Below are positions 11,926 to 28,244 of a DNA stretch of 64,000 nt, one piece after another; the stretch's first letter is position 1, and each line of letters opens with the position of its first letter. Source of the stretch: Anaerolineae bacterium (GTDB lineage Bacteria; Chloroflexota; Anaerolineae; B4-G1; SLSP01). The notes beneath the pieces are model-generated. The model saw nothing but the letters and a program-made list of their open reading frames with translations. It made no database searches and was not told the DNA's origin. The position numbers and the translations under genes are program-made. Location of the stretch: the NCBI GenBank assembly GCA_034676805.1, contig JAXDDO010000006.1:9305-73304 (forward strand), in the 5' to 3' direction.

Positions 11926-12752
11926 GAGTTGAGGCCATGAACCAGACTGCGACCCTATTTATGACAAAGCCTTCGGAGTATACCAACCGATACGCGATCG
12001 AGGCTCAGAATCTGCACGTCTACTATGGAGACTTCCTGGCTCTGAGAGATGTGAACCTCAGGATCGAGCGGCACAGAGTGACCGCAATCATCGGCCCCTC
12101 GGGATGTGGCAAAAGCACAATGCTGCGCACCTTCAACCGCATGAACGAACTCTTCCGTTCGGCGCGCACCGAGGGGAAGGTGCTCTTTGATGGGGTCGAT
12201 ATCTACCAATCGGAAATCGACCCCGTGGAGGTGCGGCGCCGTATCGGCATGGTCTTCCAGAAACCGAACCCCTTCCCCAAGAGCATCTACGAGAACGTGG
12301 CATGGGGCGCCCGCATCAACGGCTTCAAGGGGAACATGGATGACCTGGTCTTCGAGTCGCTCACGAAAGCCGCGCTCTGGGATGAGGTCAAGGACAAGCT
12401 AGGACAGAGCGGCCTGTCGCTGTCCGGCGGCCAACAGCAACGACTCTGCATTGCACGCACCATCGCGACCCGGCCCGACATCATCCTGATGGACGAACCC
12501 GCGTCGGCGCTGGACCCGATCGCCACGCTCCGCATCGAGGAGTTGATGCGCCAACTGGTCAAGGATTACACCATCATCGTCGTCACCCACAATATGCAGC
12601 AGGCCGGACGCGTCTCTGACTACACGGCCTTCTTCTCGCTGGACGACGACGATCGTGCTGGGGTTCTGGTCGAGTACGGCGCCACCCGCAAGATCTTCTC
12701 CAACCCGGAACAGCAAATCACGGAGGACTACATCACGGGAAGGTTCGGCTAA
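11922..12752 (+). CDS. pstB: Phosphate ABC transporter ATP-binding protein
   Basis: Walker [10 protein letters not shown], signature LSGGQQQR, Walker [15 protein letters not shown] 11922 overlaps the pstA stop; ATG 11937 is an alternative. The track start at 11604 lies inside pstA in another frame. Confidence 0.9.
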
Positions 12753-12770
12753 GGCGCCACCGGTTCACGC

Positions 12771-14630
12771 CTATGCCAGCTCCGGGACATCCGGCGCCGG
12801 CTCTGCCGGGCGGTCAGGTAGGCGGTCATCCGGGCTCAAGACAGCCTCGGGCAGCGAGAAACAGAAGGTACTACCGACGCCTTCCAAACTCTTCACCCAG
12901 ATCCGACCGCCGTGACCCTGCACGATATGCTTAGCGATTGCCAGGCCCAAGCCGGTGCCATCGTGAGCGCGCGCGCGATCCGTCTTGTAGAACCGCTCGA
13001 AGATCCTTGGCAGCTCCACGTCTCGGATGCCGATGCCTGTATCCTCGACGGCAATCACGACCTCCCGGGACGAAGCAGACTCGGCCCCCAGCTCGGGAGC
13101 GTCGCCTCGCCAAGCAGAGACCTGGATTTTGCCACCCGATGGCGTGAACTTGATCGCATTGTGCACCAAGTTGGTGACCACCTGCTGGATGCGCTTGGCG
13201 TCGGCACGCACCCGTGGCAGATCCTCCGGCACTGAGGCGCTCAATTCAACTCCCTTGCGCTCGGCCTGGGGTTGGAGGCGCTTGAGGGGCTTCTGGATCA
13301 GCTTGCGAACGCGCGTGGGCTTGATGTCCAGGGGCACGCGACCCGACTCGATGCGCGAGAGCTCCAGAAGCTCCTCCACCATCTGCGTCAACGAGGCCAG
13401 CTCGGTCTCCATGTGCGTGACGAAGCGACGCGCCGCCGGCGGATCCTCGATCGCGCCATCGCGCAGCGTCTCCACGACCAGCGCCAGCGAGGCGAGGGGG
13501 GTTCGCAGCTCGTGCGAGATGTTGCTGATGAAGTCACGCCGTATCGTCTCCAACCGCCGGATATGCGTCAGATCCTGCAGCATCACCAGATAGCGCGGCG
13601 GATCAGTTGCCCGCAGCGGCGTGAAGACCGCATAGACGAAACTGCCGTCGAGCACCGTCTCCACCGCCTCTGTCTGCTCCTCACCGGTCTCGACGCAACG
13701 ATTCCATAGGTCAATCAACTGCGAGCTGTGAGCCACCTGCGCAAAGCGGCGCCCCACTGCCCGCACCTCATCATAGCGAAGGATGTTGGCGGCCGCGCTG
13801 TTTATCATCACAACCGTTCCGGCTTCATCGGTGATAATCACGCCATCGGCCATGTGCTCCAGGACCGCGGAGAGGCGCGCCCGCTCGAGCGCGAGGGTAG
13901 CGACCTGGTCCTGAAGCTGATCGACCATATGGTTGACTGCGCGGGTCAGAGTCCCGATCTCGTCCTGCCTTACCAGCAGGAGGCGCCGACTCAGGTCGCC
14001 CGCAGCGACGCGCTCAACCGCCTCGGTGAGACGCCGGATCGGCGTGACGATCCGTGCGGCGACATATGTGGACAGAGCCAGGGCCACGAGCGCAGTCAGG
14101 CTCCCCGCCAGAACAATGCTCCGGCTCAACGCGCCGACGGATGCTTCAACCTCTGCAAGGGGCAGGGCAGTCCGTGCAACCCCCACCACGGCGTCGCCGC
14201 GCCTGATTGCTACCGCGACGTACATCACCTCGTGGCGCAGCGTCTGGCTCAAGCGCGTAGCTGATCCTCGTCCCACACTGAGGGCCTGCTGAACCTCGGG
14301 CCTGAAGAGGTGGTTCTCCATCGTCGCTGGATCGGCATGGGATTCGGCCAGCACGACGCCATCGCTGCCAATGACCGTTACGCGCTGGGCTAACAGCACC
14401 GCCCAACGGTCGACCTTGCCCTGAAGAGACCCCCCATCCGAGCCGGTGAGGGTATCTTGCGTCTCCAGGTCCGCGGCGATGAGCGCCGCCTCGGCGTGAA
14501 GCCGGCTCTCCAGATCATCCAGCCGGGCCCGCCGTGCCTGGTTCGATATCCATAGAGACAACCCCAGCGTGGCGAGCACGATGATCAGCGCGTAGGGAAT
14601 CGTGATTCGCCACCAAATGGACTTGAGCAT
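12771..14630 (-). CDS. Sensor histidine kinase, PhoR-like (2 TM, HAMP, PAS, HisKA, HATPase_c)
   Basis: H-box SHELRTPL, N-box LVHNAIKFT, G1 DTGIGI and G2 GTGLGLAI. The ATG lies 1 nt after the response-regulator stop. The gene is convergent with pstB. Confidence 0.85.
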   Translation of the reverse strand: MLKSIWWRITIPYALIIVLATLGLSLWISNQARRARLDDLESRLHAEAALIAADLETQDTLTGSDGGSLQGKVDRWAVLLAQRVTVIGSDGVVLAESHADPATMENHLFRPEVQQALSVGRGSATRLSQTLRHEVMYVAVAIRRGDAVVGVARTALPLAEVEASVGALSRSIVLAGSLTALVALALSTYVAARIVTPIRRLTEAVERVAAGDLSRRLLLVRQDEIGTLTRAVNHMVDQLQDQVATLALERARLSAVLEHMADGVIITDEAGTVVMINSAAANILRYDEVRAVGRRFAQVAHSSQLIDLWNRCVETGEEQTEAVETVLDGSFVYAVFTPLRATDPPRYLVMLQDLTHIRRLETIRRDFISNISHELRTPLASLALVVETLRDGAIEDPPAARRFVTHMETELASLTQMVEELLELSRIESGRVPLDIKPTRVRKLIQKPLKRLQPQAERKGVELSASVPEDLPRVRADAKRIQQVVTNLVHNAIKFTPSGGKIQVSAWRGDAPELGAESASSREVVIAVEDTGIGIRDVELPRIFERFYKTDRARAHDGTGLGLAIAKHIVQGHGGRIWVKSLEGVGSTFCFSLPEAVLSPDDRLPDRPAEPAPDVPELA

Positions 14631-14631
14631 G

Positions 14632-15351
14632 TCACCCCTCAAACCGATACCCTACCCCGCGCACAGTTAGGATCCGTGTGGGTTCACCCGGGTCATCCTC
14701 GATCTTCTCGCGCAACCACCGCACATGGACATCGACGGTACGGCTTCCGCCCGTGTAGTCCCACCCCCAGACAGCCTCGAGCAACTGATCGCGGGACAGA
14801 GCCCGGCCCCTGGCCTGTGCCAGATAGCTCAGCAGTTCATACTCCTTCGGTTTCAGGGGCAGCGGGTTGCCGCGCAACGTCACTTCCCGGCGCTCAGCGT
14901 CGATCACCAGATCGCCAAACTGCATGCGGCGTCTCGATGCGTCCACTGGCGCGTCCGGCGCCTCGCCGGCATAGGCCTGACGCATCAGGCGAACCCGGCG
15001 CAGCTGCGCCTTGATGCGGGCCAGAAGCTCGCGCATGCTGAAGGGCTTGGTGAGATAGTCATCGGCGCCCACCTCCAGCCCCACGATCTTGTCCACCTCG
15101 TCATCGCGAGCGGTCAGCATGATGATCGGCGCGTTGGTCTCCTGACGTAGTACACGACAGACCTCGAACCCATCGATGCCCGGAAGCATAATATCCAGCA
15201 AGATCAGGTCGGGCCCTGTCCGTTGCGCCAGCTCGACCCCGCGCTTGCCATCCGCCGCCGTGGTCACCTCGTAGCCCTGGCGGATCAGGTTGTACGACAG
15301 GGTCTCCCGAAGGACCAGGTCATCTTCGACAATGAGCACTCTCTCAGCCAT
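14632..15351 (-). CDS. OmpR/PhoB-family response regulator (PhoP/PhoB-like)
   Basis: Receiver domain (LIVEDD...[13 protein letters not shown]...KPF) plus a winged-helix C-terminus (...[10 protein letters not shown]). GAGGGA RBS. Confidence 0.9.
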
Positions 15352-15385
15352 ATATCCCTCGACTTACAGTGCGACCTGGGCCAGC

Positions 15386-16456
15386 TCACACCTCCGGCGG
15401 GCCGTCGGAGCTCCCACTGGCCACCTTGTAGTGGACCTCGGGAAGCGACCGCAACCGCATCGCGGCCTGCTCCGCCGTGAGGTCGCGCTGGGGCTCGGCC
15501 AGCATCTCATAGCCGACCATGAACTTCTTGACGGTGGCGGATCGCAACAGGGGCGGATAGTAGTGTGCATGCAACTGCCAATGGACGCCACTGCCGCTGC
15601 CGGTGGGCGCGCCGTGCCAGCCCATCGAATAGGGGAATGACGTCTCGAAGAGATTGTCATACTTGATCAGCAACCGCTGCAGCACCTCCGCCAGCGTCGT
15701 CCGTTCTCGGGCGACGAGCTCGGGCAGGCGCAGGACGTGACGGCGGGGCAGGACCAGGGTCTCGAATGGCCAGACAGCCCAATAGGGGACCACGACCAAC
15801 CAATCGTCGTTCTCCACCAAAACCCGTACCCCCTCGCGCGCCTCCAGCTCCGCATAGTCCAGCAGTAGGGGCCGGCCGTAGGCGTCGAGGTAGGCACGCT
15901 GGGCCACATCCTCCTTGCTTGGCTCATTGGGCAGCGCGTCGCCCGCCCACACCTGCCCGTGTGGATGCGGGTTCGAGCATCCCATCACCGTCCCCTTGTT
16001 CTCGAAGACCTGTACCCAACGGTATTGCTCTCCCAGTTCCTCGGTCTGTTCGGCCCAGACGTCGACCACACGCCGGATATCCGTGACGTCCATTTCAGCA
16101 AGGGTGAGATCGTGACGCGGCGAGAAACAGATGACCCGACACGTCCCCTGCTCGGTCTGCGCGCGCAACAAGGGATGCGGCTGCACGTCGACCGAGGGCG
16201 TGTCCGGCAGGAGTGCCGCAAAGTCATTCGTGAAGACGTATGTGGCCGTGTACTGTGGATTCTGAGCACCCCCGGCCCGTTCGTTGCCGGGGCATAGATA
16301 ACAGGCCGGGTCGTACGCTGGCCGGTCATCTTGGGGCGGACGCTCTACCTGGCCCTTCCAGGGCCGCTTCGTACGGTGGGGTGACACCGTGATCCATTCC
16401 CCCGTGAGAGCATTGAGGCGGCGATGCGGATGGTCCGCCGGCCTGAACTCGGACAT
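15386..16456 (-). CDS. galT: Galactose-1-phosphate uridylyltransferase (UDP-glucose--hexose-1-phosphate uridylyltransferase)
   Basis: Zinc motif CYLCPGNER and active-site HPHGQVWA (the H-x-H-x-Q motif). N-terminal [30 protein letters not shown]. Confidence 0.9.
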
Positions 16457-16742
16457 GATGACCTCCCCGTGATCAATGTACGCAGCGCGTGTCTGTAGCC
16501 GAACCCCAGTAGGCGGGCGATCAGCCGGTCAAGCGCAGCAAGCCCGGGAACACGCCGGCACACAGGCAGACCGCTACCGATCGCCACAGCTGCTACGACA
16601 CTCTATTATAGCTGGCTCTCGCCCGAATGCGTTGTCTGTGGACGATCCGCGTTCCGGGGCGGCTGCATCCTGCAGGGTTGGCGGCCCCGGCTGCCCGTTG
16701 GGCGATTGCCACGCCGCGAAAGCGGGCTAGACTAACCGCAAG

Positions 16743-18026
16743 ATGGCCAGACAGACCTACACACTCCCATACGGGCGGCGAACGCTGACCTTGGTGCTGG
16801 AGACGGATGCACAGGTAACAGAACTCCTGCCCAAGGAAACCGCTGCGGCGCCCGACCCCATAGGCGCCATTACCGCGGCCCTGGCCGAACCGGTCGGCGG
16901 GACGTGCCTGGCAGACTTCAAATCCGCCCGATCCGTCGCCATCGCCATCAACGACAAGACGCGCCCGGTACCCCACCATCTGCTGCTGCCCCCGCTCCTT
17001 GAGGCACTGGAACGGGAGCTGGCGCTGCCCCCCGAGGCCATCACACTGGTAATCGCCACCGGCACACACATCCCGATGCCGCCGGAGAGCTTCGCCAGCG
17101 TCGTGCCGCCCGCCGTGCTGGCGCGCTATCCGGTCGTCTCGCACGACTGCGATGCCGGCGACCAAGTGGCCCTGGGGACCACATCGCGGGGCACACCGGT
17201 CAGCATCAACCGCCGCTATATGGAGGCAGACCTGCGCATGGTTGTGGGCAATGTCGAACCGCACCACTTCGCGGGGTACTCAGGCGGCGTGAAGAGCGCA
17301 GCGATTGGGTTGGCCGGACGGGAGACGATCACGGCCAACCATAGTCTTCTGCTGGATGCGCGCTCGGTGCTGGCATGCTACGAGACCAATCCCCTGCGAC
17401 AGGATGTCGAGGAGATCGGGTGCATGTTGGGGGTACATTTTGCCCTGAACGTCGTGATGAACGACCACAAGGAGATCGTCGCCGCGTTCGCCGGAAGCCC
17501 GCAGGCGGTGATGCACACAGCAATACCACGCCTCCGGCACATCTACGAGATCGAGGTGCCCGAGCCTTTCGATGTGATGATCACCAGCCCGGGCGGCTAC
17601 CCCAAGGACATCAACCTCTACCAGGCGCACAAGGCAGTCTCGTGCGCCAACCGGGTAACGCGCGAGGGGGGCGCGATCGTTCTCGTGGCTGCCTGCGAGG
17701 ACGGCTCTGGCAGCCAGGGATGGGAAACGTACATGGCACGCGGGTTCACCTCTCACGCAGAAGCCATGGCACAGTTTACCCGCGAGCCCTTTCGCATTGG
17801 CCCCCACAAGGCCTATATCTTCGGCAGGGACGCGGTCCGGCTAAGCGGGCTGTGGATTGTGTCGGATATGGATCCCAAACGCGTGCGGCAGCTCCTGCTC
17901 ACGCCTGCGACACTGGAAGAGGCCGTCGCCGCTGCAGTCGCGCCGCTGCCCGGCACTGCGCGCGTCGGCATCATGCCCTACGCCAACGCGACGATACCGG
18001 GGCTGCGCGGAGCGCGCCCGGGCTAA
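16743..18026 (+). CDS. LarA-family nickel-pincer (NPN)-dependent 2-hydroxyacid racemase/epimerase homologue
   Basis: Motifs match LarA catalytic and cofactor positions as I recall them: INDKTRP, ATGTH (first catalytic His), EPHHFAGYSGGVKS (second His plus the NPN-tethering Lys), ANH (Ni ligand), and YQAHK. Confidence 0.8.
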   Translation: MARQTYTLPYGRRTLTLVLETDAQVTELLPKETAAAPDPIGAITAALAEPVGGTCLADFKSARSVAIAINDKTRPVPHHLLLPPLLEALERELALPPEAITLVIATGTHIPMPPESFASVVPPAVLARYPVVSHDCDAGDQVALGTTSRGTPVSINRRYMEADLRMVVGNVEPHHFAGYSGGVKSAAIGLAGRETITANHSLLLDARSVLACYETNPLRQDVEEIGCMLGVHFALNVVMNDHKEIVAAFAGSPQAVMHTAIPRLRHIYEIEVPEPFDVMITSPGGYPKDINLYQAHKAVSCANRVTREGGAIVLVAACEDGSGSQGWETYMARGFTSHAEAMAQFTREPFRIGPHKAYIFGRDAVRLSGLWIVSDMDPKRVRQLLLTPATLEEAVAAAVAPLPGTARVGIMPYANATIPGLRGARPG

Positions 18027-18105
18027 CCGGCACGTGCCCAGCTGGCCGCTTCTGGGGATAGCAACCCGGGACACACAGCCGAGCCTTCTCGAAGGAGCCA
18101 ACCCT

Positions 18106-19182
18106 ATGCCAACAAACCTGCTCGACATCAAGACCCTTACCGAGCTCCAGCCCGCTACGGCGCTGTGGCAGCGCTACGCCCCAGAGCGCGCACCGTATCG
18201 CTTCCAGGCAGCGAACGCGGATGCAGGGCGCGCGTGGCAGGAGAAGACCCGCCCGGCCTTACGCGACGTCCTTGGCTTCACCGATCTTCCCGGCGCGCCA
18301 CTCGCGCCGAAATGCATCGAGCGCGTGGACAAGGGCACCTACACGCGCGAGAAGTGGGTGCTGCGCACGTCGGCCCATACCCTGATGCCGGTCTACATAC
18401 TGATTCCCAACACAGGACCTGTCCCGCACCCGGTCGCGCTCGCGTTTCACGGGCACGGCTACGGCGTCAAGGACATCGTAGGCCTGTGGGAAGACGGCGA
18501 GGAGCGCGATACGCCTGAGGGCTACCACCAGCACTTCGGCGTGGCCCTGTGCCAGCGTGGGTTCCTCGTTGCTGCGCCGGAGATCTCGTGCTTCGGCGAA
18601 CGCCAGACCGACTTCTCCTACCTCAACACGACGATTGGGCAGGGCACGCCCACCACGTGCACCCATACCGCGATGCTCGCCTTCCACCTGGGCGGCTCGG
18701 TCGCGGGGTTGCGCGTCCACGACGCCCTGCGCCTGGTCGACTACCTCGAGACCCGGCCCGACGCCGACACCCAGCGGATGGGCGCGATGGGGATCTCCGG
18801 CGGCGGCATGCACACCTTCTTCTCGACGTGCATCGACGCCCGCATCAAAGCCTGCGTGATCAGCGGTTACTACAGCACCTTCCGCGACAGCATCCTGGCG
18901 ATGTCGCACTGCGCCTGCAACTTCGTCCCGGGGCTGTGGCAGTTTGGGGAGATGTACGACCTGGTCGGGCTTATCGCGCCGCGCCCGCTCCTCGTCGAAG
19001 CTGGCTCCTACGACCCCATCTTCCCGCTCGAATCCGTGCAGCGCAGCGTGGCCCGAGCCCGCGAGATCTACGGGCTCTTCGGCGCTGCGGACCAGGTCGA
19101 GACCGATTACTTCGAGGGCCGTCACCGCATCAGCGGCGCACGCGCTTATGACTTCCTGTGGGAGAAGTGTGCACAGCGCTGA
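18106..19182 (+). CDS. Alpha/beta hydrolase (acetyl-xylan-esterase / dienelactone-hydrolase-like)
   Basis: GAAGGAG RBS before ATG 18106. Nucleophile elbow GISGGG, and the overall alpha/beta-hydrolase spacing of Ser...Asp...His. The track start at 17857 overlaps the LarA 3' end. Confidence 0.6.
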   Translation: MPTNLLDIKTLTELQPATALWQRYAPERAPYRFQAANADAGRAWQEKTRPALRDVLGFTDLPGAPLAPKCIERVDKGTYTREKWVLRTSAHTLMPVYILIPNTGPVPHPVALAFHGHGYGVKDIVGLWEDGEERDTPEGYHQHFGVALCQRGFLVAAPEISCFGERQTDFSYLNTTIGQGTPTTCTHTAMLAFHLGGSVAGLRVHDALRLVDYLETRPDADTQRMGAMGISGGGMHTFFSTCIDARIKACVISGYYSTFRDSILAMSHCACNFVPGLWQFGEMYDLVGLIAPRPLLVEAGSYDPIFPLESVQRSVARAREIYGLFGAADQVETDYFEGRHRISGARAYDFLWEKCAQR

Positions 19183-19282
19183 AGCAAGAGCGCCTAAGCG
19201 TGAACACGATCATGCCACCCGGCGACCACGAGCCCATGACCCATCTGGCTTACCCTATCTCATCGGAGGAAACAGAACGACT

Positions 19283-20551
19283 ATGACCCAGATCAGCGAG
19301 CAGTATGTCAACCAGCACTCCCGTCCGTCGGATCTCAGAATCACCGATATGCGCGTCGTTCACCTGAAGGGCATCCCCATGCGGGTGCCGCTCATCCGCA
19401 TCGACACGAACCAGGGTCTCTCCGGCTACGGCGAGGTCCGCGATGGCGCCAGCAGCACCTTCGCGTTGATGCTCAAGAGCCGTATCCTGGGGGAGAATCC
19501 CTGTAACGTCGACAAGGTTTTCCGCAAGATCAAGCAGTTTGGCCATCACGCGCGCCAGGCCGGCGGCGTGTGCGCCATTGAGATGGCGCTGATGGACCTG
19601 GCAGGACGAGCCTACGGCGTCCCGGCCTACATGCTGGCAGGTGGGAAGTTCCGCGACAAGGTGCTCATCTACAGCGACACGCACTCCGAGCCAGACGGCA
19701 AGACCATGGGCAAGCGCCTCAAGGCCCGGATGGAGCAGGGCTTCAAGTTCCTCAAGATGGACGTCGGGATCGGCTTGCTGCGCAACGTGCCCGACGCGCT
19801 GATCGGCTTCCCCGACACCCTGCGCAGCTACACGATCATGCACCCCTTCACGGGCATCCAGATCACCGAGAAGGGTATCGACCATCTGTGCCGCTACGTG
19901 GATGATGTCCGCAGCGTGGTTGGCTACGAGGTGCCCCTCGCCGTGGATCATTTCGGTCACATCGGGCTGGAATCGTGCATCCGCCTGGGACTGGCGCTCG
20001 ACCAGTTCACGTTGGCCTGGTACGAGGATATGCTCCCGTGGCAGTTCGCCGACCAATACGTGACGCTGTCGCGCGCGGTGAAGACCCCGATCTGCACCGG
20101 CGAGGATATCTACCTCAAAGAGAACTTCATGCCGTTGTTCGAAAAGCGCGCTGTCTCTATCATCCACCCCGACCTGGCAAGCTCCGGCGGCATCCTGGAG
20201 ACCAAGCGCATCGGTGATGCGGCCCAGGAGTACGGCATCGCGATGGCCATGCACATGGCAGGCTCTCCCATCGCTGCCCTGGCAAGCGTCCACTGCGCCG
20301 CCGCCACCGAGAACTTCCTGGTCCTGGAGAATCACTCGGTAGACGAGGCCAAGTGGAACGACCTGGTGACAGGTCTGCCGAACCCCCTGATTCAGGACGG
20401 CTACATCCAGGTGCCGGAGACCCCGGGCCTGGGCTTCGCCGAACTGAACGAGGAGATGATCCGCGAACACATCGACCCGGACCATCCCGGCTACTTCGAG
20501 CCCACAGACGAGTGGGATCAAGAGCGCTCGCACGACCGGCTGTGGAGCTGA
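19283..20551 (+). CDS. Enolase-superfamily sugar-acid dehydratase, ManD/RspA-like (mandelate racemase/muconate lactonizing enzyme family)
   Basis: Metal and acid-base motifs AVDHFGH, WYEDMLP and CTGEDIY, plus HPDLASSGGI. Length and the central insertion resemble the D-mannonate dehydratase subgroup. The track start at 18944 is an upstream extension. Confidence 0.8.
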   Translation: MTQISEQYVNQHSRPSDLRITDMRVVHLKGIPMRVPLIRIDTNQGLSGYGEVRDGASSTFALMLKSRILGENPCNVDKVFRKIKQFGHHARQAGGVCAIEMALMDLAGRAYGVPAYMLAGGKFRDKVLIYSDTHSEPDGKTMGKRLKARMEQGFKFLKMDVGIGLLRNVPDALIGFPDTLRSYTIMHPFTGIQITEKGIDHLCRYVDDVRSVVGYEVPLAVDHFGHIGLESCIRLGLALDQFTLAWYEDMLPWQFADQYVTLSRAVKTPICTGEDIYLKENFMPLFEKRAVSIIHPDLASSGGILETKRIGDAAQEYGIAMAMHMAGSPIAALASVHCAAATENFLVLENHSVDEAKWNDLVTGLPNPLIQDGYIQVPETPGLGFAELNEEMIREHIDPDHPGYFEPTDEWDQERSHDRLWS

Positions 20552-20692
20552 GCGACCCGGGTGATCGGCATCCGAGAGCCAGACTCAGAATCGGCAGCGA
20601 GACCGGTGAAGGTGGCCTTGCATCTCCCCTCGGCTCGCTGTCGGACACCATCCATATCGAATCGCCTATCGCGATAGCAGGAGGTATGCACA

Positions 20693-21808
20693 ATGAGAAA
20701 TCCCGAAACCATCATCAACTTGACGCCTGAGATGTTCAATGCCCGAGAAGCAGTGCTCGTCGAGCGTGCCACGGACTCGGGCGCGCTCGTCGCCCGGACG
20801 TTCCGCTTCGACAGCGGCGTCTGCGGCCTGCGCCTGACAAGCGACAACGGCGAGTTGGTCCTGCTTCCCTTCCAGGGGCAGCAGGTCTGGTCGGTCGCGT
20901 TCAACGGGCGGAACCTAACGATGAAGTCGATGTTCGATCAACCCTATCCCACCCGTGTCTTCCTCGACACCTTCGGGGGATTCATGCAGCACTGCGGGAT
21001 CACGGGCGTCGGCTCGCCGGGTCCGGGGGACACCCACCCGCTTCACGGTGAGTTGCCCAATGCGCCCTACGGCAAGGCCTATGTCGTGTTGGGAGAGGAT
21101 GCGCAAGGCAGCTACATTGGCCTCGGCGGCAAGTACCGCCACACCGTAGCCTTCGCCCACAACTACCTGGCACACCCCATGGCAAAGCTCTACGCCGGCG
21201 CGACGACCTTTGCCGTCTCGATGAACATCACCAACCTCAAGCAATCGCCCCAGGACCTGCTCTATCTGGCCCACGTCAACTTCAGGCCCGCCGACAATGG
21301 GCGCCTGGTCTACAGCGCCATCCCCACACCCGAGCACGTGCGCGTGCGCGCGAGCATCCCCTCGCACATCACACCAGGGCCGGGGTACGTCGAGTTCATC
21401 CAGGCACTGGGCCGCACGCCCGAGATGCACCACGTGCTCAAGCCCGATCTCGCTTTCGATCCGGAGGGGGTCTTCTTCATCGACTACCTACCGGACGCCG
21501 ACGGGTGGGCGCACTCGCTGCAGCTCCATCCTGACGGTGCCGCCGACTACATCGGCCACCGCCCGGAGCAGCTCCCCAAGGGCACGCGCTGGATCTCGCG
21601 CACGGCGGATCAGGACGCCATCGCCCTCGTCGAGGCCGGAACGTGCGAGCCGGAAGGATACCTCGCCGAGAAGGCAAAGGGCAACGTCAAGGCTATCGCG
21701 CCGGGTGACACCTTCCGCGCAGACTTTCGCATTGGGGCGCTGGCCCCGGCCGAAGCGGAAGCGGTGGCGCAGAAGATCGAGCAGGTCATCGCATCTGCGA
21801 AGGGCTGA
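20693..21808 (+). CDS. Aldose-1-epimerase-like (galactose-mutarotase fold, DUF4432-type) protein
   Basis: AGGAGG RBS. All-beta composition with the motif HPLHGELPNAPY, reminiscent of the mutarotase superfamily. The assignment is tentative. Confidence 0.4.
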   Translation: MRNPETIINLTPEMFNAREAVLVERATDSGALVARTFRFDSGVCGLRLTSDNGELVLLPFQGQQVWSVAFNGRNLTMKSMFDQPYPTRVFLDTFGGFMQHCGITGVGSPGPGDTHPLHGELPNAPYGKAYVVLGEDAQGSYIGLGGKYRHTVAFAHNYLAHPMAKLYAGATTFAVSMNITNLKQSPQDLLYLAHVNFRPADNGRLVYSAIPTPEHVRVRASIPSHITPGPGYVEFIQALGRTPEMHHVLKPDLAFDPEGVFFIDYLPDADGWAHSLQLHPDGAADYIGHRPEQLPKGTRWISRTADQDAIALVEAGTCEPEGYLAEKAKGNVKAIAPGDTFRADFRIGALAPAEAEAVAQKIEQVIASAKG

Positions 21809-21816
21809 GAGCGATC

Positions 21817-22911
21817 ATGCGCATCGACTTCCACGGCCGGCCGGTCGATGAGCCCCGCATTCGCGCGGGGTTCATCGGGTGCGGCTCACACTCGTTCCGC
21901 AACATCTACCCCACGTTTCAGTTCGCGCCGGTGGACCTCGTCGCTGTCTGCGACCTCGTCCCGGCGAAAGCGCGGACGTTCGCCGCCCAATTCGGCGCCC
22001 AGCGCGCCTATACCGACTACCATGAGATGCTCACCCGCGAGAACCTGGATGCGGTCTTCATCGTGACCGGCTACGACCCGCAGGGCCGTCCACTCTACCC
22101 TGCGCTCGCGGCCGATTGCCTGGCTGCCGGCTGCCACGTCTGGACCGAGAAGCCGCCTGCCGCAACCACGGCGGAGATCGAGCGCCTGCAGGCCGCGTCA
22201 CGCGCCGCCGGAAAGCACATGATGGTCGGCCTCAAGAAGATGTTCTTCCCGGCGAACGAGAAGGCCAAGGCCCTGATCTCGGATGACGACTTCGGGGCCC
22301 TCTCTCTCGCGACACTGGACTACCCGCAATACGTGCCCGCGGTGGACGAGTTCCAGGCCTACCTGGACCAAGGGCAGCGCACGTCCGCCGTCGGGTTCCT
22401 GGACCACCTCTGCCACCCTGCCTCACTGCTCCTCTACCTGCTGGGCATGCCCGCGTCGCTCAGCTACGAGCGCAGCGCCTATGGCGCGGGGCTGGCGACC
22501 TTCCGTTACGCATCCGGCGCCGTCGCGGCGATGACGTTCAGCCACGGCGCGCCCGGCAACCGTGGGATGGAGCGCACTGTGTTGATCTCGGACCGCGGAC
22601 GGCGCGTTGTCGTCGAGAACAACATCCGCGTGTTCTACGACCGGATGGTGGGGCTGGGCTACGGCAACGAGCCCAACTACTACCAGGGTGCGCCGGAGCA
22701 GGTCTCTGCCGTCTGGGAGCCGGAGTTCTCGCTCGGGCAGCTCTACAACAAGGGCCTCTTCCTGCTGGGCTACTATGGGGAAGTCAACGAGTTCGCCCGC
22801 GCCCTGCTGGAAGATCGCCCGCCGGTCAAGGGCACCCTGGAGCACGCCTGGCAGGTGACCCGCCTCTTCGAGGCGTTCGCCGAGGGTCCAGGCAAGACCC
22901 TCGAGTTCTGA
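21817..22911 (+). CDS. Gfo/Idh/MocA family NAD(P)-dependent oxidoreductase
   Basis: N-terminal Rossmann motif RAGFIGCGSHSF and the family EKP motif (VWTEKPPA). Confidence 0.85.
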   Translation: MRIDFHGRPVDEPRIRAGFIGCGSHSFRNIYPTFQFAPVDLVAVCDLVPAKARTFAAQFGAQRAYTDYHEMLTRENLDAVFIVTGYDPQGRPLYPALAADCLAAGCHVWTEKPPAATTAEIERLQAASRAAGKHMMVGLKKMFFPANEKAKALISDDDFGALSLATLDYPQYVPAVDEFQAYLDQGQRTSAVGFLDHLCHPASLLLYLLGMPASLSYERSAYGAGLATFRYASGAVAAMTFSHGAPGNRGMERTVLISDRGRRVVVENNIRVFYDRMVGLGYGNEPNYYQGAPEQVSAVWEPEFSLGQLYNKGLFLLGYYGEVNEFARALLEDRPPVKGTLEHAWQVTRLFEAFAEGPGKTLEF

Positions 22912-22943
22912 CCGGGCCTTTAGCCGGTATCAAGACAGACCGT

Positions 22944-22975
22944 GAGACGCCGGGCTCTGCGAGTCCCGGCGTCTC
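22944..22975 (+). terminator. Possible terminator hairpin after the Gfo/Idh/MocA gene
   Basis: 11-bp stem (GAGACGCCGGG pairing with CCCGGCGTCTC) with a 10-nt loop. Only a weak T-containing tail follows (GCTGTGTGGTG). Confidence 0.4.
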
Positions 22976-23126
22976 GCTGTGTGGTGTCGTGGTCTCAACA
23001 GGTTGTCCCGTGCTGGGGTCACAGTACAATCGGGGGGATGGCAGAGGCGACTGATGGGGGCGCGGCGGCAGGGGCCGAGGCAGGGCCCGCTGCCCGGCGC
23101 CCCATACGGTGTCAAGGAGCTCTACA

Positions 23127-25466
23127 GTGAAACAGGGCAACGATTTTCTAGTCGACCTGCTCGACTTCGATCGACCGGAGGCGCGAGAGGACGTCCTCTG
23201 GCGCGCCTACCGGCCGACGGCGGCAGAGGTGGTCGACGGAGACGTGATCATCACTGTCCCATTCCAGGCACAGACGGGTGGTCTGCGTCCGGTGGCCGAT
23301 GACAGCCGCGCTCAGAAGAAACACTTCCTCCGGGTGCGCGCCTATGATGATGTTGATGGCCCGGTGGCTCTACGGCTGTCCATCACGTTCGCCGGCGAGG
23401 CTGAGAGCCGTCTGATCGGAGAGGACGGCCCTATGCTGGCGCTCGATCCCAGTCTGATCGTTCAGCCGCTGTCGCTCAGGTCAACGGGATCAAGATGGGA
23501 GGTTCTCGACCCATCGGGCGTCCTGCGCCTCAGCGTGACGATGGCCGATCCACCGGTGCGTCCCTGGGGCGGCACCTCGCTCCCCGAGCCACAAGAAACA
23601 CTCGAGATCACGCTCTTTCCCGACGGCAAGACGCCCGTGCGGCTGGCAGCCCACGACCACTTCTTCCCGCCCAAGGTGGAAGCGCTGCCCATGGCTTACG
23701 TTACGCGCGCAGACCAACCGCACCGCGCCCTGTTCGGGTTCCACGCCGAGTCCACCGAGCGATTCGCCGGCACCGGGGAGCGCTTCGCCAAGCTCGACCT
23801 GTCCGGACGCACGCTGGTCCTCGAGAACACCGATGCGCTCGGCGTCAACAACCGGCGCGCCTACAAGAACGTGCCGTTCTACCTCTCCAGCCGGCCCTAT
23901 GGGCTCTTTATGCATACGCCGTCGCACATCCGGCTCTCGCTTGCCGACATCTCCACGCGCGCCGCGCAGGGCCTCGTCGAGGAGCCGGCCCTCGATCTCT
24001 TCATGATCGGCGGCGGCTCGGTGGAGCGCGTGCTCTACAACTACCGCCGCCTTACGGGGTTCCCGCCGGAGATGCCGCTGTGGAGCTATGGTACTTGGAT
24101 GAGCCGGATGACTTATTTCAGTGCCGACGAGGTGCGCTCCGTCGCACGCCAGCTGCGCGACGGAGATTTCCCGTGCGACGTCCTGCACCTTGACACAGGC
24201 TGGTTTGCCAAGGACTGGGTTTGCGAGTGGGAGTTCAGCCAGGAGCGCTTCCCTGACCCCGCGGGCTTCATGGCCGCGATGCGCAAACAGGGCTTTCGCA
24301 TCACGCTCTGGCAGACGCCCAACATTGGGCCAGGAAACAAGCTACTGGCGGAGGCCAAGGCCAACCGCTATCTGGCGCCGCTCAAGGCTGCGTCGTCCGC
24401 CGGCGGATCCCTCCCGGAGGGGGTTCCTACTGATGGTGCGGCGTCAGAGTCCGATTTCTCCGCGCAGGGGGTCGCCGGACAGATCGACTTCTCGAACCCG
24501 GAAGCTGTGACATGGTACCAGGGTCTGGTGGCACGCCTGCTGAAGCTGGGCGCTTCGGCCATCAAGACTGACTTCGGTGAGGATGTCGACCCCAATGGCG
24601 ATTTCGCCGGGCTGCCCGCCGAGAAGCTGCACAACCTCTACGGCCTGCTCTACCAGCGCGCGGCGTTCGAGATCACGCAGCAGGTCACCGGCGAGGGCAT
24701 CATCTGGGCGCGGACGAGTTGGGCCGGCTGCCAGCGCTACCCGGTCCACTGGGGAGGCGATGCCGCCTGCTCCTGGGATGGTATGGCCGGTTCGCTGCGC
24801 GGCGGGCTGCATCTGGGGCTGTCGGGCTTCGCATTCTGGAGCCACGACGTGCCCGGCTTCCATGGGCTGCCGAACTTCATGGCCAGTTGGCCGTCCGACG
24901 AGCTATACGTGCGTTGGACGCAGTTCGGCGTCTTTACATCTCACCTGCGCTATCACGGCTCGACGCCTCGCGAGCCCTACGCGTACCCGGCGGTGGCCGA
25001 CACAGTGCGCAAGTGGCTCAAGCTGCGCTATGCGCTGATCCCGTACATCGTCGACCAAGCGCGCCGCTCCGTACGAACCGGTCTGCCCCTCCTTCGCGCG
25101 CTCGTCTTGCACCACGAGGACGATCCTACCTGCTGGCATATCGACGACGCCTACTACTTCGGCGACGACTTCCTGGTTGCACCGGTGATGAACGCCAGGA
25201 GCGTGCGGGATGTCTATCTGCCCGCCGGCACGTGGGTGGATGTATGGACCGGGGGGCATCACCAGGGGCCGCAGTGGCTCACCCGCGTCGCCGTGCCCCT
25301 CGAACACATGCCTCTGTACGTGAGGCTTGGCGCGCGGGTGCCCGTCTACCCCCATCCCGTCGCCTCCACGCAGGAGATGGATTTGGGCAAGGCCGTGACA
25401 CTGGCATTCGACGACGCCTACGACGGCCTTTCGACATCGATTCTAGGCAAAGTGACCGGGCTCTGA
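23127..25466 (+). CDS. Glycoside hydrolase family 31 (YicI-like alpha-xylosidase/alpha-glucosidase)
   Basis: AAGGAG RBS 7 nt before GTG 23127. Nucleophile region IKTDFGE and acid/base region VHWGGDAAC as in YicI-type GH31. No signal peptide. Confidence 0.85.
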   Translation: MKQGNDFLVDLLDFDRPEAREDVLWRAYRPTAAEVVDGDVIITVPFQAQTGGLRPVADDSRAQKKHFLRVRAYDDVDGPVALRLSITFAGEAESRLIGEDGPMLALDPSLIVQPLSLRSTGSRWEVLDPSGVLRLSVTMADPPVRPWGGTSLPEPQETLEITLFPDGKTPVRLAAHDHFFPPKVEALPMAYVTRADQPHRALFGFHAESTERFAGTGERFAKLDLSGRTLVLENTDALGVNNRRAYKNVPFYLSSRPYGLFMHTPSHIRLSLADISTRAAQGLVEEPALDLFMIGGGSVERVLYNYRRLTGFPPEMPLWSYGTWMSRMTYFSADEVRSVARQLRDGDFPCDVLHLDTGWFAKDWVCEWEFSQERFPDPAGFMAAMRKQGFRITLWQTPNIGPGNKLLAEAKANRYLAPLKAASSAGGSLPEGVPTDGAASESDFSAQGVAGQIDFSNPEAVTWYQGLVARLLKLGASAIKTDFGEDVDPNGDFAGLPAEKLHNLYGLLYQRAAFEITQQVTGEGIIWARTSWAGCQRYPVHWGGDAACSWDGMAGSLRGGLHLGLSGFAFWSHDVPGFHGLPNFMASWPSDELYVRWTQFGVFTSHLRYHGSTPREPYAYPAVADTVRKWLKLRYALIPYIVDQARRSVRTGLPLLRALVLHHEDDPTCWHIDDAYYFGDDFLVAPVMNARSVRDVYLPAGTWVDVWTGGHHQGPQWLTRVAVPLEHMPLYVRLGARVPVYPHPVASTQEMDLGKAVTLAFDDAYDGLSTSILGKVTGL

Positions 25467-25581
25467 GCCCAGGCTCTAGGCAAGGCCTCCAGAACCTCAG
25501 CCATAGCAGAGCTTGCTGCCTGCTGACACCTGAAGGCGGCGACTGATCGCCATTCTAGTAGAAGGGATTGCCATATCGGAC

Positions 25582-27693
25582 ATGGACATCGCACTCGGCA
25601 TCGACACAGGCGGCACGTATACCGACGCCGTCCTCGTAGACCAAGACACAGGGAGCGTGCTGGCGCGCACCAAGGCACTGACGACCCACCGGAACCTGGC
25701 CACCGGCATCGCCGAAGCCATCGCGAACGTCTTCGGGCCCGAAGCCCGGCTCGACGGGCACAGCGCGAAGGAGATTGCGCCCGAGGCGGTGGGGCTCGTG
25801 GGCCTGTCGACGACACTGGCGACCAATGCCATCGTCGAGGGTCAAGGCGGCTCCGTCTGCCTGCTGCTCATCGGATACGACCCGGACTTCATCCGTCAGC
25901 GCGAGTTCGAGGAAGAGCTCGTGACCGACGACGTGGTCTACATTCAGGGTGGGCACACCATCGACGGCGAGGAGCGCATACCCCTGGACGAAACCGCCGC
26001 ACGCGATGCAATCCTCGCGCGACGGGACCGGGTCGCAGCGTTCGCCGTCTCGGGTTATTTCGGCGTGCGCAACCCCGATCACGAGTTGCGCGTCAAGGCC
26101 CTCATCGAGGAGCTCACCGCCGGCGAACGTGGGATGCCACTCCCGGTCACCTGCGGCCACGAGCTCACGACCAAGCTGAACGCCATACGTCGCGCCACGA
26201 CCGTGGCGTTGAACGCACGCCTCATCCCCACCCTGCGCGACCTGATCCTCACGGTGCGCGCAAGCCTGGATTCGAAGGGGGTCTCCGCCCCACTGATGAT
26301 CGTCAAAGGCGATGGCTCGCTCGTGCGGTCGGAATGGGCCATCCAGCGGCCCATCGAGACGATCCTGTCGGGGCCGGCTGCCAGCGTCGTGGGCGCCTGG
26401 CACGTCGCCGGGCGCAAAGACGTCTGGGTCGTCGACGTCGGCGGCACTACCACGGACATCGCCGCATTGCGCGATGGCCATCCCCGCCTGAACCCACAGG
26501 GAGCGCAGGTGGGACGCTGGCGCACGATGGTCGAGGCCGCGGACGTGCACACGGTGGGGCTGGGCGGAGACAGCCACGTCACCTTCAGCACCAACGGCGC
26601 GCGACATCCTGGGCACACGGCTCCCCGCCCTATCGCCCTGGGGCCTCAGCGCGTTCTGCCTCTCTGCCGACTGGCGTCCGAACATCCCGAGATCCTCGAT
26701 GAACTGCGGCGCCAGCAGACCATCAAGAAGCGGGCGCTGCTGCCGAGCGTCGCGCAGTTCCTGGTCGCGCGGCGCTCACCAGGCCCCGGATTGGCTGAGG
26801 CGGACCGTGCGCTCGTCGCACACGTTCAGACGGGCGCGGTCTCGCTCATCTCGTTGGCACAGGAGCACGCTCACTTCACGTTCCTGATGGAGCGCATCGA
26901 CCGGTTGGTGGCACAGCAGCTTGTCCTGCGGGCCGGGTTCACGCCCACCGATGCGCTTCACGTCCTCGGGCGCTTCGTCGCGTGGGACGTCGAGGCCGCA
27001 CGGCTGGCGGCGGAGCTCCTGGCACGCCAGCTTGATCTCTCCGTCGAGGCTTTCTGTACGCTGGTGGCTGGCGAAGTCTCAAATCGTGTGGCCACCGAGC
27101 TCGTTACCAAAGTCCTCAGCGACGAGGTGGCGCCTGCGAATTGGTCGACCGAGCCGCTGGCTGCAGGCCTGTTAGCGCGCGCGCTGGACCTGGTCGCGGA
27201 TACCGACCTGGCGTGCCACATGACGCTACGGCAGCCTATCGTGGCTGTTGGTGCGCCGGTGGGCGCATATATGCCGGGCGCCGCCGAGCAGCTCCACACC
27301 GAACTGCTGCTGCCCGAACACGCCAGCGTCGCCAACGCCGTGGGCGCGGTGGTGGGCAGCGTGGTTCAGCGGGCTACCGTGCTGATCCGGCCTATCGAGT
27401 TCGGCGAAGTCTACCGCGTCCACCTCCCCGGGAACCTGGGGCTGACCGAAACAATCCACGACGCCGACACGCTCGACGCCTGCGTGGCCTATACAGAGTC
27501 TGTCGTTCCGGAACAGCTACAGCGCCTGGCCGAGGAGGCCGGTGCCCGCCAGGTCGAGATTCAGGTCGCGCGGGTCGACCACACAGGCCCAATCCGTGAG
27601 AAGCGGGACGAATCGGTCTTCCTGGAATCCGTCTTGACCTTCACCGCAGTGGGTCGGCCCGCGAGCGTGAGGTTGGCTTCGGAACTGCTATGA
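25582..27693 (+). CDS. Hydantoinase/oxoprolinase (HyuA-type, ASKHA ATPase) family protein; no HyuB partner
   Basis: N-terminal IALGIDTGGTYTDAVLVD phosphate-1 motif and a second ASKHA motif VVDVGGTTTDIA. About 300 aa of additional C-terminal sequence. Confidence 0.8.
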   Translation: MDIALGIDTGGTYTDAVLVDQDTGSVLARTKALTTHRNLATGIAEAIANVFGPEARLDGHSAKEIAPEAVGLVGLSTTLATNAIVEGQGGSVCLLLIGYDPDFIRQREFEEELVTDDVVYIQGGHTIDGEERIPLDETAARDAILARRDRVAAFAVSGYFGVRNPDHELRVKALIEELTAGERGMPLPVTCGHELTTKLNAIRRATTVALNARLIPTLRDLILTVRASLDSKGVSAPLMIVKGDGSLVRSEWAIQRPIETILSGPAASVVGAWHVAGRKDVWVVDVGGTTTDIAALRDGHPRLNPQGAQVGRWRTMVEAADVHTVGLGGDSHVTFSTNGARHPGHTAPRPIALGPQRVLPLCRLASEHPEILDELRRQQTIKKRALLPSVAQFLVARRSPGPGLAEADRALVAHVQTGAVSLISLAQEHAHFTFLMERIDRLVAQQLVLRAGFTPTDALHVLGRFVAWDVEAARLAAELLARQLDLSVEAFCTLVAGEVSNRVATELVTKVLSDEVAPANWSTEPLAAGLLARALDLVADTDLACHMTLRQPIVAVGAPVGAYMPGAAEQLHTELLLPEHASVANAVGAVVGSVVQRATVLIRPIEFGEVYRVHLPGNLGLTETIHDADTLDACVAYTESVVPEQLQRLAEEAGARQVEIQVARVDHTGPIREKRDESVFLESVLTFTAVGRPASVRLASELL

Positions 27694-28244
27694 CCATGGA
27701 CGATTCGATCATTCTGCGCCGTTTGCAGCCTGACGATGCCGAGGCGCTCTGCGCGTTCTACAACGGCCTGAGTCCCACGTCCAAACGCACGTTCCGCCCA
27801 ATCGATGAGACGACGACGACGGCCGTCTGCGCAGCGATCGCCGCCGAGAACGGACCGCCCACCCCGACCAAGTTAGACCTCGTGGCGATCCTGGGCGGTG
27901 GCGAGGATGCTGAGGGAGCCGCTGGCGACACAATCGTCGGCTGGAGTTTCCTCTGGGCGCTCGACGCGACCGATCCCGAGCAGGGACCGGTCTTCGGCCT
28001 GGCAGTCAGCGACGCCTATCACGGTCGGGGCCTTGGCACACGCCTTATGTCGCAGGTGATGGCGTGGGCTCGTGCCCAGGGCCTGCCGCAGGTCGTCCTC
28101 ACCGTGGTGACCGACAACGCGGTCGCTCAACACCTCTACGAGAAGCAGGGCTTCGTACGTTACGGCACCTTCACCGGTGAGGACGGCCTGCCCTACTACC
28201 GGATGCGCGCACACCTTGAGGGAGCCACAGCCCCGTCGCGCTAG
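27690..28244 (+). CDS. GNAT family N-acetyltransferase
   Basis: ATGA overlap with the hydantoinase-like gene. Acetyl-CoA motif YHGRGLGTRLM. C-terminal NAVAQHLYEKQGF. Confidence 0.8.
   Translation: MTMDDSIILRRLQPDDAEALCAFYNGLSPTSKRTFRPIDETTTTAVCAAIAAENGPPTPTKLDLVAILGGGEDAEGAAGDTIVGWSFLWALDATDPEQGPVFGLAVSDAYHGRGLGTRLMSQVMAWARAQGLPQVVLTVVTDNAVAQHLYEKQGFVRYGTFTGEDGLPYYRMRAHLEGATAPSR

Follow-up and report, generated by a model that had tools for sequence, protein, structure and literature searches.

LarA-type enzymes depend on a rare organometallic nickel cofactor known as nickel-pincer nucleotide (NPN), and only a handful of them have an assigned substrate. The closest described systems are the malate racemases Mar1 of Desulfitobacterium hafniense (Dhaf_4417; LarA homologue (LarAH) group 5) and Mar2 of Thermoanaerobacterium thermosaccharolyticum (PDB 6D6Z; LarAH6), and the GntE D-gluconate/D-mannonate 2-epimerases (LarAH19 and LarAH20; Thermotoga maritima). 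The gene context of LarAH5 has pointed to sugar-acid dehydratases since 2020, when a gene for a COG2721 altronate/galactarate-type dehydratase was found in every tallied context, with 19 COG2721 genes for 15 LarAH genes (Desguin et al. 2020, Table S1, PMC7583248). Here, we describe a LarAH5 homologue from a 64,000-nucleotide stretch of an Anaerolineae bacterium genome (assembly GCA_034676805.1, contig JAXDDO010000006.1, positions 9,305 to 73,304, hereafter the window), in which the place of the COG2721 enzyme is taken by a protein of the enolase superfamily (ENO). The explanation we favour, and to which we give an even chance, is that an NPN-dependent LarA epimerase and a β-eliminating ENO act as a stereochemical funnel, most plausibly for an aldarate or another anionic sugar acid.

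Mar1, the only characterised member of LarAH5, has a Km for malate of 55 mM, and its authors questioned whether malate is what the enzyme uses natively (Desguin et al. 2020, PMC7583248). Data published in 2024 in the Journal of Biological Chemistry give a kcat/Km of 3.9e2 M-1 s-1 for an enzyme that we read as Mar1 (the column of the table is headed “LarAH27 [9]”), compared with 6.3e5 for a true malate racemase. The “malate racemase” label of the group is thus weak, since it rests on the very weak activity of this single enzyme. According to published work, substrate selection in LarA enzymes depends on three spots: the pair of residues following His174, the one preceding Lys298 and one in α14. 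These are occupied by Tyr-Lys, Gln and Lys in Mar2, by Gln-Phe, Gln and Lys in Mar1, and by Glu-Ser, Gly and Asn in GntE2.

The LarA homologue of the window (16743-18026, + strand, 427 aa) is composed of a Lar_N domain (PF09861, 177.5 bits) and a LarA_C domain (PF21113, 59 bits), and its best PDB match is Mar2 (6D6Z, E 7e-72, full-length alignment). The motifs quoted in the initial annotation of the locus (DKTRP, ATGTH, PHHFAGYSGGVK, ANH and YQAHK) are all found, and they align with D72/R75, H108, H174...K184, H200 and Y294/Q295/K298 of characterised LarA enzymes. In the alignment to Mar2, the corresponding residues are D71/R74, H109, H174, K184 (the tether), H200 (the nickel ligand), Y293/Q294/K297 and G353-H355-K356, with K184, H200 and R74 facing K181, H197 and R74 of Mar2. 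This entire set is invariant in 30 close relatives, and proper alignment reveals no loss of the tethering Lys or of the cofactor His residues. Judged by these positions, the LarA homologue is a complete NPN-type enzyme. It shares its catalytic residues, its cofactor residues and the GHK Lys with Mar2, and the whole GHK motif, together with all NPN-binding and catalytic positions, with Mar1.

As the initial annotation had remarked, the window contains no larB, larC or larE gene for NPN synthesis. In the genome, matches above cut-off are confined to another contig, where larE, larB and larC lie side by side (G000:C39:68139-71244), each scoring above its curated cut-off (LarE, 330.7 bits; LarB, 283.1 bits; LarC, 283.1 and 174.5 bits within one 529-aa frame). 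Because this cluster is present, the proposal of an NPN-dependent step does not founder on a missing cofactor pathway.

Within the LarA superfamily, the homologue belongs to LarAH5, since it scores 501.1 bits against the NCBIfam model of this group (NF052595, “malate racemase”; cut-off 462), the next best model being LarAH6 (NF052593, 397.7 bits for a cut-off of 500). Its pocket consists of His175-Phe176, His296 and Lys356. Compared with the published LarAH5 signature, H175, F176 and G353/H355/K356 match, the residue after His174 being Gln or His in the group, but position 297 is occupied by His296 and not by Gln. Hence, the window LarA differs from Mar1 in its α11 residue (His instead of Gln) and from Mar2 in both the pocket loop (His-Phe instead of Tyr-Lys) and α11 (His instead of Gln). 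H175 and H296 are invariant in the subclade of the window LarA, a separate and fully supported lineage. On residue identity, the pocket is MAR-like and cationic and not GntE-like. The GHK Lys is kept and is joined by two His residues. By the published docking and modelling of Mar2, this suggests that the substrate is an acid carrying a second anionic group rather than a neutral aldonate.

The candidate partner of LarA, ENO (19283-20551, + strand, 422 aa), is a member of the mandelate-racemase subgroup of the enolase superfamily, with MR_MLE_N (PF02746, 30.8 bits) and MR_MLE_C (PF13378, 153.4 bits) domains. It was initially described as a ManD/RspA-like dehydratase, an assignment that could not be maintained, as it reaches only 120.7 bits for a cut-off of 550 with the ManD model (NF043051) and 178.8 for 311 with the GalD model (PRK14017). 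Its best PDB match, 2QQ6, is a structure without assigned function, and the literature on the PDB structures nearest to ENO provided nothing useful. ENO shares its two-domain fold with E. coli DgoD and the ManD subgroup, as well as the metal-binding Asp/Glu/Glu set, the His-Asp dyad and the Glu that comes after it. The invariant ligands D222, E248 and E274 align with D183, E209 and E235 of DgoD, which we take to be the metal ligands of that enzyme, and the invariant H324/D297 aligns with the DgoD dyad, with E349 also kept. In contrast, identity to DgoD is only 26% and ENO carries an insertion of about 40 residues. The Asp-x-His of GalD and ManD is replaced in the ENO family by D222-H223-F224-G225, which is invariant, and most members have His at 226 as well. 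ENO is thus predicted from its sequence to be an acid-sugar dehydratase of a separate, uncharacterised GalD/ManD-like family. This family is also unusually conserved, with 76-90% identity over more than 120 clusters, Litorilinea aerophila included.

In the closest genome, an Anaerolineae metagenome-assembled genome (MAG; locus L011), LarA, ENO and the DUF4432 protein encoded downstream of ENO in the window are conserved with 70%, 87% and 80% identity, respectively, and their genes follow each other in the order LarA, ENO, DUF4432 and a HyuA-like gene, separated by 16, 30 and 16 bp. In metagenomes, 14 LarA clusters (67-74% identity) have a longest contig identical in size to that of ENO clusters, and three of these 14 size matches recur among the DUF4432 clusters. 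The core module is LarA-ENO-DUF4432, since this trio is kept in L011 and on the approximately 14 size-matched metagenome contigs. The α/β hydrolase, the Gfo/Idh/MocA dehydrogenase and the GH31 glycosidase encoded at the same locus are missing from the L011 cluster; they are local additions, and the five genes initially presented as one unit are not conserved as such.

LarAH5 homologues with 44-58% identity to the window LarA were found in 24 of the 300 sampled genomes of the class. A scan of metagenomes with an alignment of LarA yielded relatives at 39-58% identity, outside the clade at ≥60% identity, while a scan of genome contigs with the single LarA protein returned one locus. In about 30 LarAH5 loci among the 24 genomes and 80 metagenome loci, the genes immediately upstream of LarA encode two subunits, a small one of the SAF type and a GD_AH one of about 390 aa. 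This is the subunit architecture of the sulfolactate sulfo-lyase SuyAB. The GD_AH partners of these sister clades are annotated only as “UxaA family hydrolase”, including in plasmid annotations, which did not discriminate SuyB from UxaA/GarD, and their best named model is galactarate dehydratase. The SAF/GD_AH-linked loci often carry genes for a YeiH-family exporter, a GH31 or GH4 glycosidase, a major facilitator superfamily (MFS) transporter and an aldehyde:ferredoxin oxidoreductase. A recurrent Anaerolineae cluster of this type (L038, L039, L043, L045, L047, L123 and others) combines GH31 or GH4, a YeiH-family “putative sulfate exporter”, SAF, GD_AH, LarA, and an MFS transporter and/or the aldehyde:ferredoxin oxidoreductase.

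The pocket motifs divide LarAH5 according to gene partner. The subgroup HQF...YQQK adjoins the split UxaA-type enzyme, the subgroup HHF...YQHK, to which the window belongs, adjoins ENO and DUF4432, and the subgroup HHF...YQQK adjoins a Hydrolase_4 α/β hydrolase, near housekeeping or C3-metabolism genes. In this last subgroup (His175, Gln297; L124, L129, L145, L148, L153, L156 and about 20 more metagenome loci), the Hydrolase_4-type gene is almost always the next one, at 17-165 bp, and the neighbours are Asp23, NusB and phosphoenolpyruvate carboxykinase (PEPCK) genes, or genes for glycerol kinase, glycerol-3-phosphate dehydrogenase and FAD-oxidase. To our knowledge, the pairing of a LarAH5-like gene with a Hydrolase_4-type hydrolase has not been described. 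In a quick maximum-likelihood tree, the LarA proteins of the window and L011 pair with an SH-aLRT of 100, the backbone otherwise being without resolution, and the nearest sequences by path length are UxaA- or GH4-linked.

A related arrangement is found in Sporomusa termitida, where an operon of plasmid pSPTER (NZ_CP036260.1, 6311-13489; L183), adjoining a GntR regulator, encodes a GalD-like enolase-superfamily enzyme, TctC, TctB, TctA, a LarAH and a split UxaA-family enzyme. Its similarity to the window lies in the presence, in one operon, of genes for a LarA-domain protein, a GalD-like enolase-superfamily protein and a sugar-acid dehydratase. However, this LarAH belongs to group 22 (532 bits) and not to group 5, and the operon has the split UxaA and the TctABC carboxylate transporter but neither DUF4432, the Gfo dehydrogenase nor GH31. 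It offers a cultivable test case for the coupling of LarA with a dehydratase.

Taken across relatives, a conserved coupling of the LarAH5 lineage to enzymes predicted to abstract an α-proton and eliminate a β-substituent is supported, because members of two independent dehydratase superfamilies are encoded at the same place next to LarAH5, and because the Sporomusa operon combines both superfamilies and a carboxylate transporter with a LarAH of another group. The window shares with Mar1 the genetic pairing with a β-eliminating, sugar-acid-type enzyme, although the partner of Mar1 is a split UxaA/GarD (COG2721) enzyme while that of the window is an enolase-superfamily enzyme accompanied by DUF4432. 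The locus hence represents an independent context, with a different dehydratase superfamily in the same slot, which strengthens the case that the real function of LarAH5 is to feed a β-eliminating enzyme. By analogy, the anaerobic sister loci (glycosidase, aldehyde oxidoreductase, LarAH5 and UxaA-type enzyme) and the window locus (GH31, DUF4432, Gfo dehydrogenase, hydrolase, LarAH5 and ENO) would follow the same logic with non-orthologous parts. The pairing of LarA with a dehydratase is already on record for group 5 (Desguin et al. 2020), and the largely uncharacterised pathway announced in the initial annotation is a new gene arrangement of it. Novel features are an enolase-type enzyme as partner, DUF4432 as companion, a pocket with His175 and His296 that is specific to the subclade, and the oxidative feeder genes that have been added.

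In the proposed funnel, whose substrate, order of steps and enzyme activities are all predictions built on the observed gene content, catalytic residues, cofactor genes and synteny, the LarA homologue would bind the NPN made by the larE-larB-larC products encoded elsewhere in the genome and would invert C2 of a 2-hydroxy acid via a transient 2-keto intermediate. The correct C2 epimer would be passed to the adjacent ENO, which would take the same C2 proton and eliminate the C3 hydroxyl, yielding a 2-keto-3-deoxy acid. Because the C2 stereocentre is lost in this product, LarA and ENO together would allow the cell to use both C2 epimers. An aldarate or another uronate-derived dicarboxylate would be a more likely substrate than a neutral aldonate. 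Three feeder genes would have been gained upstream in the pathway: GH31 could release a sugar from an α-glycoside, the Gfo/Idh/MocA dehydrogenase could oxidise it with the help of the mutarotase-fold DUF4432 protein, and the esterase-like hydrolase could open a lactone or remove an ester. LarA and ENO form a compact pair for a coupled assay, which could identify the native substrate and also give a function to the conserved Chloroflexota ENO family and to a branch of DUF4432.

Several observations weigh against this explanation. In the alignment of ENO with DgoD, the general-acid His185 of DgoD falls in register on F224, with His residues at 223 and 226; the general-acid His is thus out of register and the chemistry of ENO may therefore differ from a simple dehydration. 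Orthologues of ENO with 61-81% identity were found in 22 of the 300 class genomes; where the contig extended far enough, almost all of them have neither LarA nor DUF4432 nearby, implying that the function of ENO does not always need LarA. Their neighbours, which include an RraA-like aldolase with an MFS transporter, BNR/PA14 proteins, a thiamine pyrophosphate enzyme with an aminotransferase, a serine carboxypeptidase, a PAS histidine kinase and a glycyl-tRNA synthetase, define no single pathway. In addition, the co-location of LarA and ENO in metagenomes is read indirectly from equal-sized longest contigs, and the gaps of 79-197 bp in the window are compatible with separate transcription. The anionic tail of the substrate is derived from the published docking and modelling of Mar2. 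Finally, the hydrolase has no link to lactonases among NCBIfam and PDB matches.

Taken literally, the complete route proposed in the initial annotation would start from a neutral aldose, with interconversion of its anomers, oxidation at C1 and opening of the lactone, after which the aldonate would be 2-epimerised by a GntE-like LarA and a ManD-type enzyme would dehydrate it. Each of the five enzyme classes is represented, in a window rich in glycosidases, and the role proposed for the window LarA has the same logic as that of GntE, in which an NPN enzyme inverts C2 of a sugar acid within a sugar-acid catabolic cluster. GntE-type LarA homologues are known to act on mannonate and gluconate, and the broad-spectrum LarAH10 was also reported to have a weak mannonate epimerisation activity. 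However, GntE belongs to different LarA groups, and the window LarA scores 24.6 bits for a cut-off of 500 with the hexonate-epimerase model (NF052594), so that a gluconate 2-epimerase type is not borne out. The pocket of GntE-type hexonate 2-epimerases (LarAH18-20), with a Glu-Ser/Val loop and small residues at α11 and α14, is small and acidic (Glu/Ser, Gly and Asn in GntE2), in contrast with the cationic pocket of the window LarA (His/Phe, His and Lys). ENO falls below both the ManD and GalD cut-offs, the dehydrogenase and the hydrolase are missing from the L011 cluster, and the hydrolase is esterase-like rather than lactonase-like. From this route, the NPN-type LarA, the larBCE genes and the coupling to a β-eliminating enzyme stand, while the GntE type, ManD, the lactonase and the five-gene unit do not, and as a whole we consider it rather unlikely. 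A similarly low probability is given to a plain malate (C4-dicarboxylate) racemase, uncoupled from ENO and placed among sugar genes incidentally. The match to the NF052595 equivalog above cut-off and the GHK motif common to the window LarA, Mar1 and Mar2 agree with such an activity, as do the gaps of 79-141 bp in the window, the ENO orthologues usually found without LarA, and the sister subgroup HHF...YQQK, whose PEPCK, glycerol kinase and FAD-oxidase neighbours suggest C3/C4 metabolism. On the other hand, the only characterised LarAH5 enzyme, with its Km of 55 mM, is about 1000-fold less efficient than true malate racemases, the adjacency of LarA and ENO is conserved (16 bp in L011 and about 14 size-matched metagenome contigs), and H175 and H296 are invariant pocket changes peculiar to the subclade.

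Sulfolactate is a sulfonate analogue of malate, and LarAH5 enzymes could be 3-sulfolactate racemases feeding SuyAB-type sulfo-lyases, with ENO as a non-orthologous β-eliminating lyase for a sulfonated or similar anionic C3 acid. This reading would account for the SAF and ~390-aa GD_AH pair adjoining the sister clades, which has the SuyAB architecture, and for the YeiH-family “putative sulfate export” and aldehyde:ferredoxin oxidoreductase genes often found with it. Furthermore, S-sulfolactate needs racemisation before SuyAB, and the only solution known from the literature is a pair of dehydrogenases. We nevertheless hold it to be very improbable, as the GH31 genes are YicI- or 5F7C-like and not YihQ-like, genes of sulfoglycolysis were not recognised, UxaA-family is the only annotation of the GD_AH proteins, with galactarate dehydratase as best named model, and the clade of the window has ENO and sugar-type neighbours. 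A long shot of the same order is the wider proposition that LarAH5 enzymes are not malate racemases but racemise or epimerise a 2-hydroxy acid with an anionic tail, such as 3-sulfolactate, tartrate or an aldarate, and that their UxaA/SuyAB-type partner would have been replaced here by a new enolase-superfamily β-eliminase. If true, LarA-ENO-DUF4432 would be an undescribed route making both stereoisomers of such an acid usable, the most surprising version being a one-enzyme sulfolactate racemase combined with an enolase-type sulfo-lyase.

Turning to the genes that accompany LarA and ENO, the five intact, co-directional open reading frames initially placed at 16743-22911 are all present on the + strand, and Pfam agrees with the family given to each of the five proteins. 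The hydrolase (18106-19182, + strand, 358 aa) is a carbohydrate-esterase-like Abhydrolase_7 protein (PF12715, 54.1 bits) with an additional sub-threshold glucuronyl-esterase match, and its best PDB matches are 3NUZ, a putative acetyl xylan esterase, and 3G8Y. A lactonase role was proposed for this protein; its sole lactonase match is an N-acyl homoserine lactone lactonase at 19.4 bits for a cut-off of 400, and its nearest relatives are putative acetyl-xylan-esterase-like Abhydrolase_7 proteins, and the sequence lends no support to such a role.

The DUF4432 protein (20693-21808, + strand, 371 aa; PF14486, 69.6 bits) was initially called mutarotase-like. The fold part of this description is retained, as the AlphaFold2 model (pLDDT 78, pTM 0.83) has the galactose-mutarotase β-sandwich, with 3TY1, a putative aldose 1-epimerase, as top Foldseek match (TM 0.77), followed by GalM-type mutarotases (TM 0.5-0.65). 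The family assignment is different, Pfam giving DUF4432 and not Aldose_epim. The candidate catalytic residues H118, H194 and E321, picked by motif resemblance, are invariant, although residues 87-124 have a pLDDT below 50. The literature on DUF4432 provided nothing useful, and a search of the protein atlas returned clusters for DUF4432 only.

The last of the five genes (21817-22911, + strand, 364 aa) encodes a putative NAD(P)-dependent sugar dehydrogenase with a GFO_IDH_MocA domain (PF01408, 64 bits) and the corresponding C-terminal domain (PF22725, 38.2 bits). Every NCBIfam equivalog is far below its cut-off, and the best PDB match is a scyllo-inositol/L-glucose dehydrogenase (62 bits). A GH31 α-glycosidase gene (23109-25466, + strand; start codon uncertain), which carries the GH31 domains, follows and probably belongs to the same unit. 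Its best match is the α-glucosidase of PDB 5F7C (936 bits, E 2e-280), with 319 bits for YicI and about 130 bits for the sulfoquinovosidase YihQ. A sulfoquinovose (sulfo-Entner-Doudoroff-like) reading of the whole cluster was dropped, the GH31 being 5F7C/YicI-like and not YihQ-like.

The five genes are separated by gaps of 79, 100, 141 and 8 bp, with about 197 bp between the Gfo/Idh/MocA gene and GH31. Shine-Dalgarno-like sequences are present 5′ of the hydrolase, ENO and DUF4432 genes. A scan for promoters and terminators was unremarkable, with no convincing terminator inside the cluster, and an Rfam scan of 12000-28000 revealed no RNA element. Upstream of the cluster, galT and a Pho-type two-component pair are encoded on the opposite strand. 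Glycosidase genes are plentiful in the surrounding window, its G+C content is about 65% throughout, and the closest relatives are Anaerolineae MAGs.

The gene after GH31 encodes a HyuA-like ASKHA protein (window 25582-27693; L011:13717-15801) and is the first of the next glycosidase operon. It has no HyuB partner and is located 3′ of LarA-ENO-DUF4432 in both genomes. Because it follows the module in both, with a gap of only 16 bp in L011, it may belong functionally to LarA-ENO-DUF4432 and not only to the downstream mannosidase operon.

The same genome also encodes a second, very divergent LarA homologue (G000:C4:139354-140685; L010:1393-2724), which scores best with the model for group 18, putative hexonate epimerases (176 bits for a cut-off of 500). 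This gene is preceded by proA and directly followed by another Gfo/Idh/MocA dehydrogenase gene (L010:2733-3491). The NPN cofactor of this genome would therefore serve at least two LarA-type enzymes.

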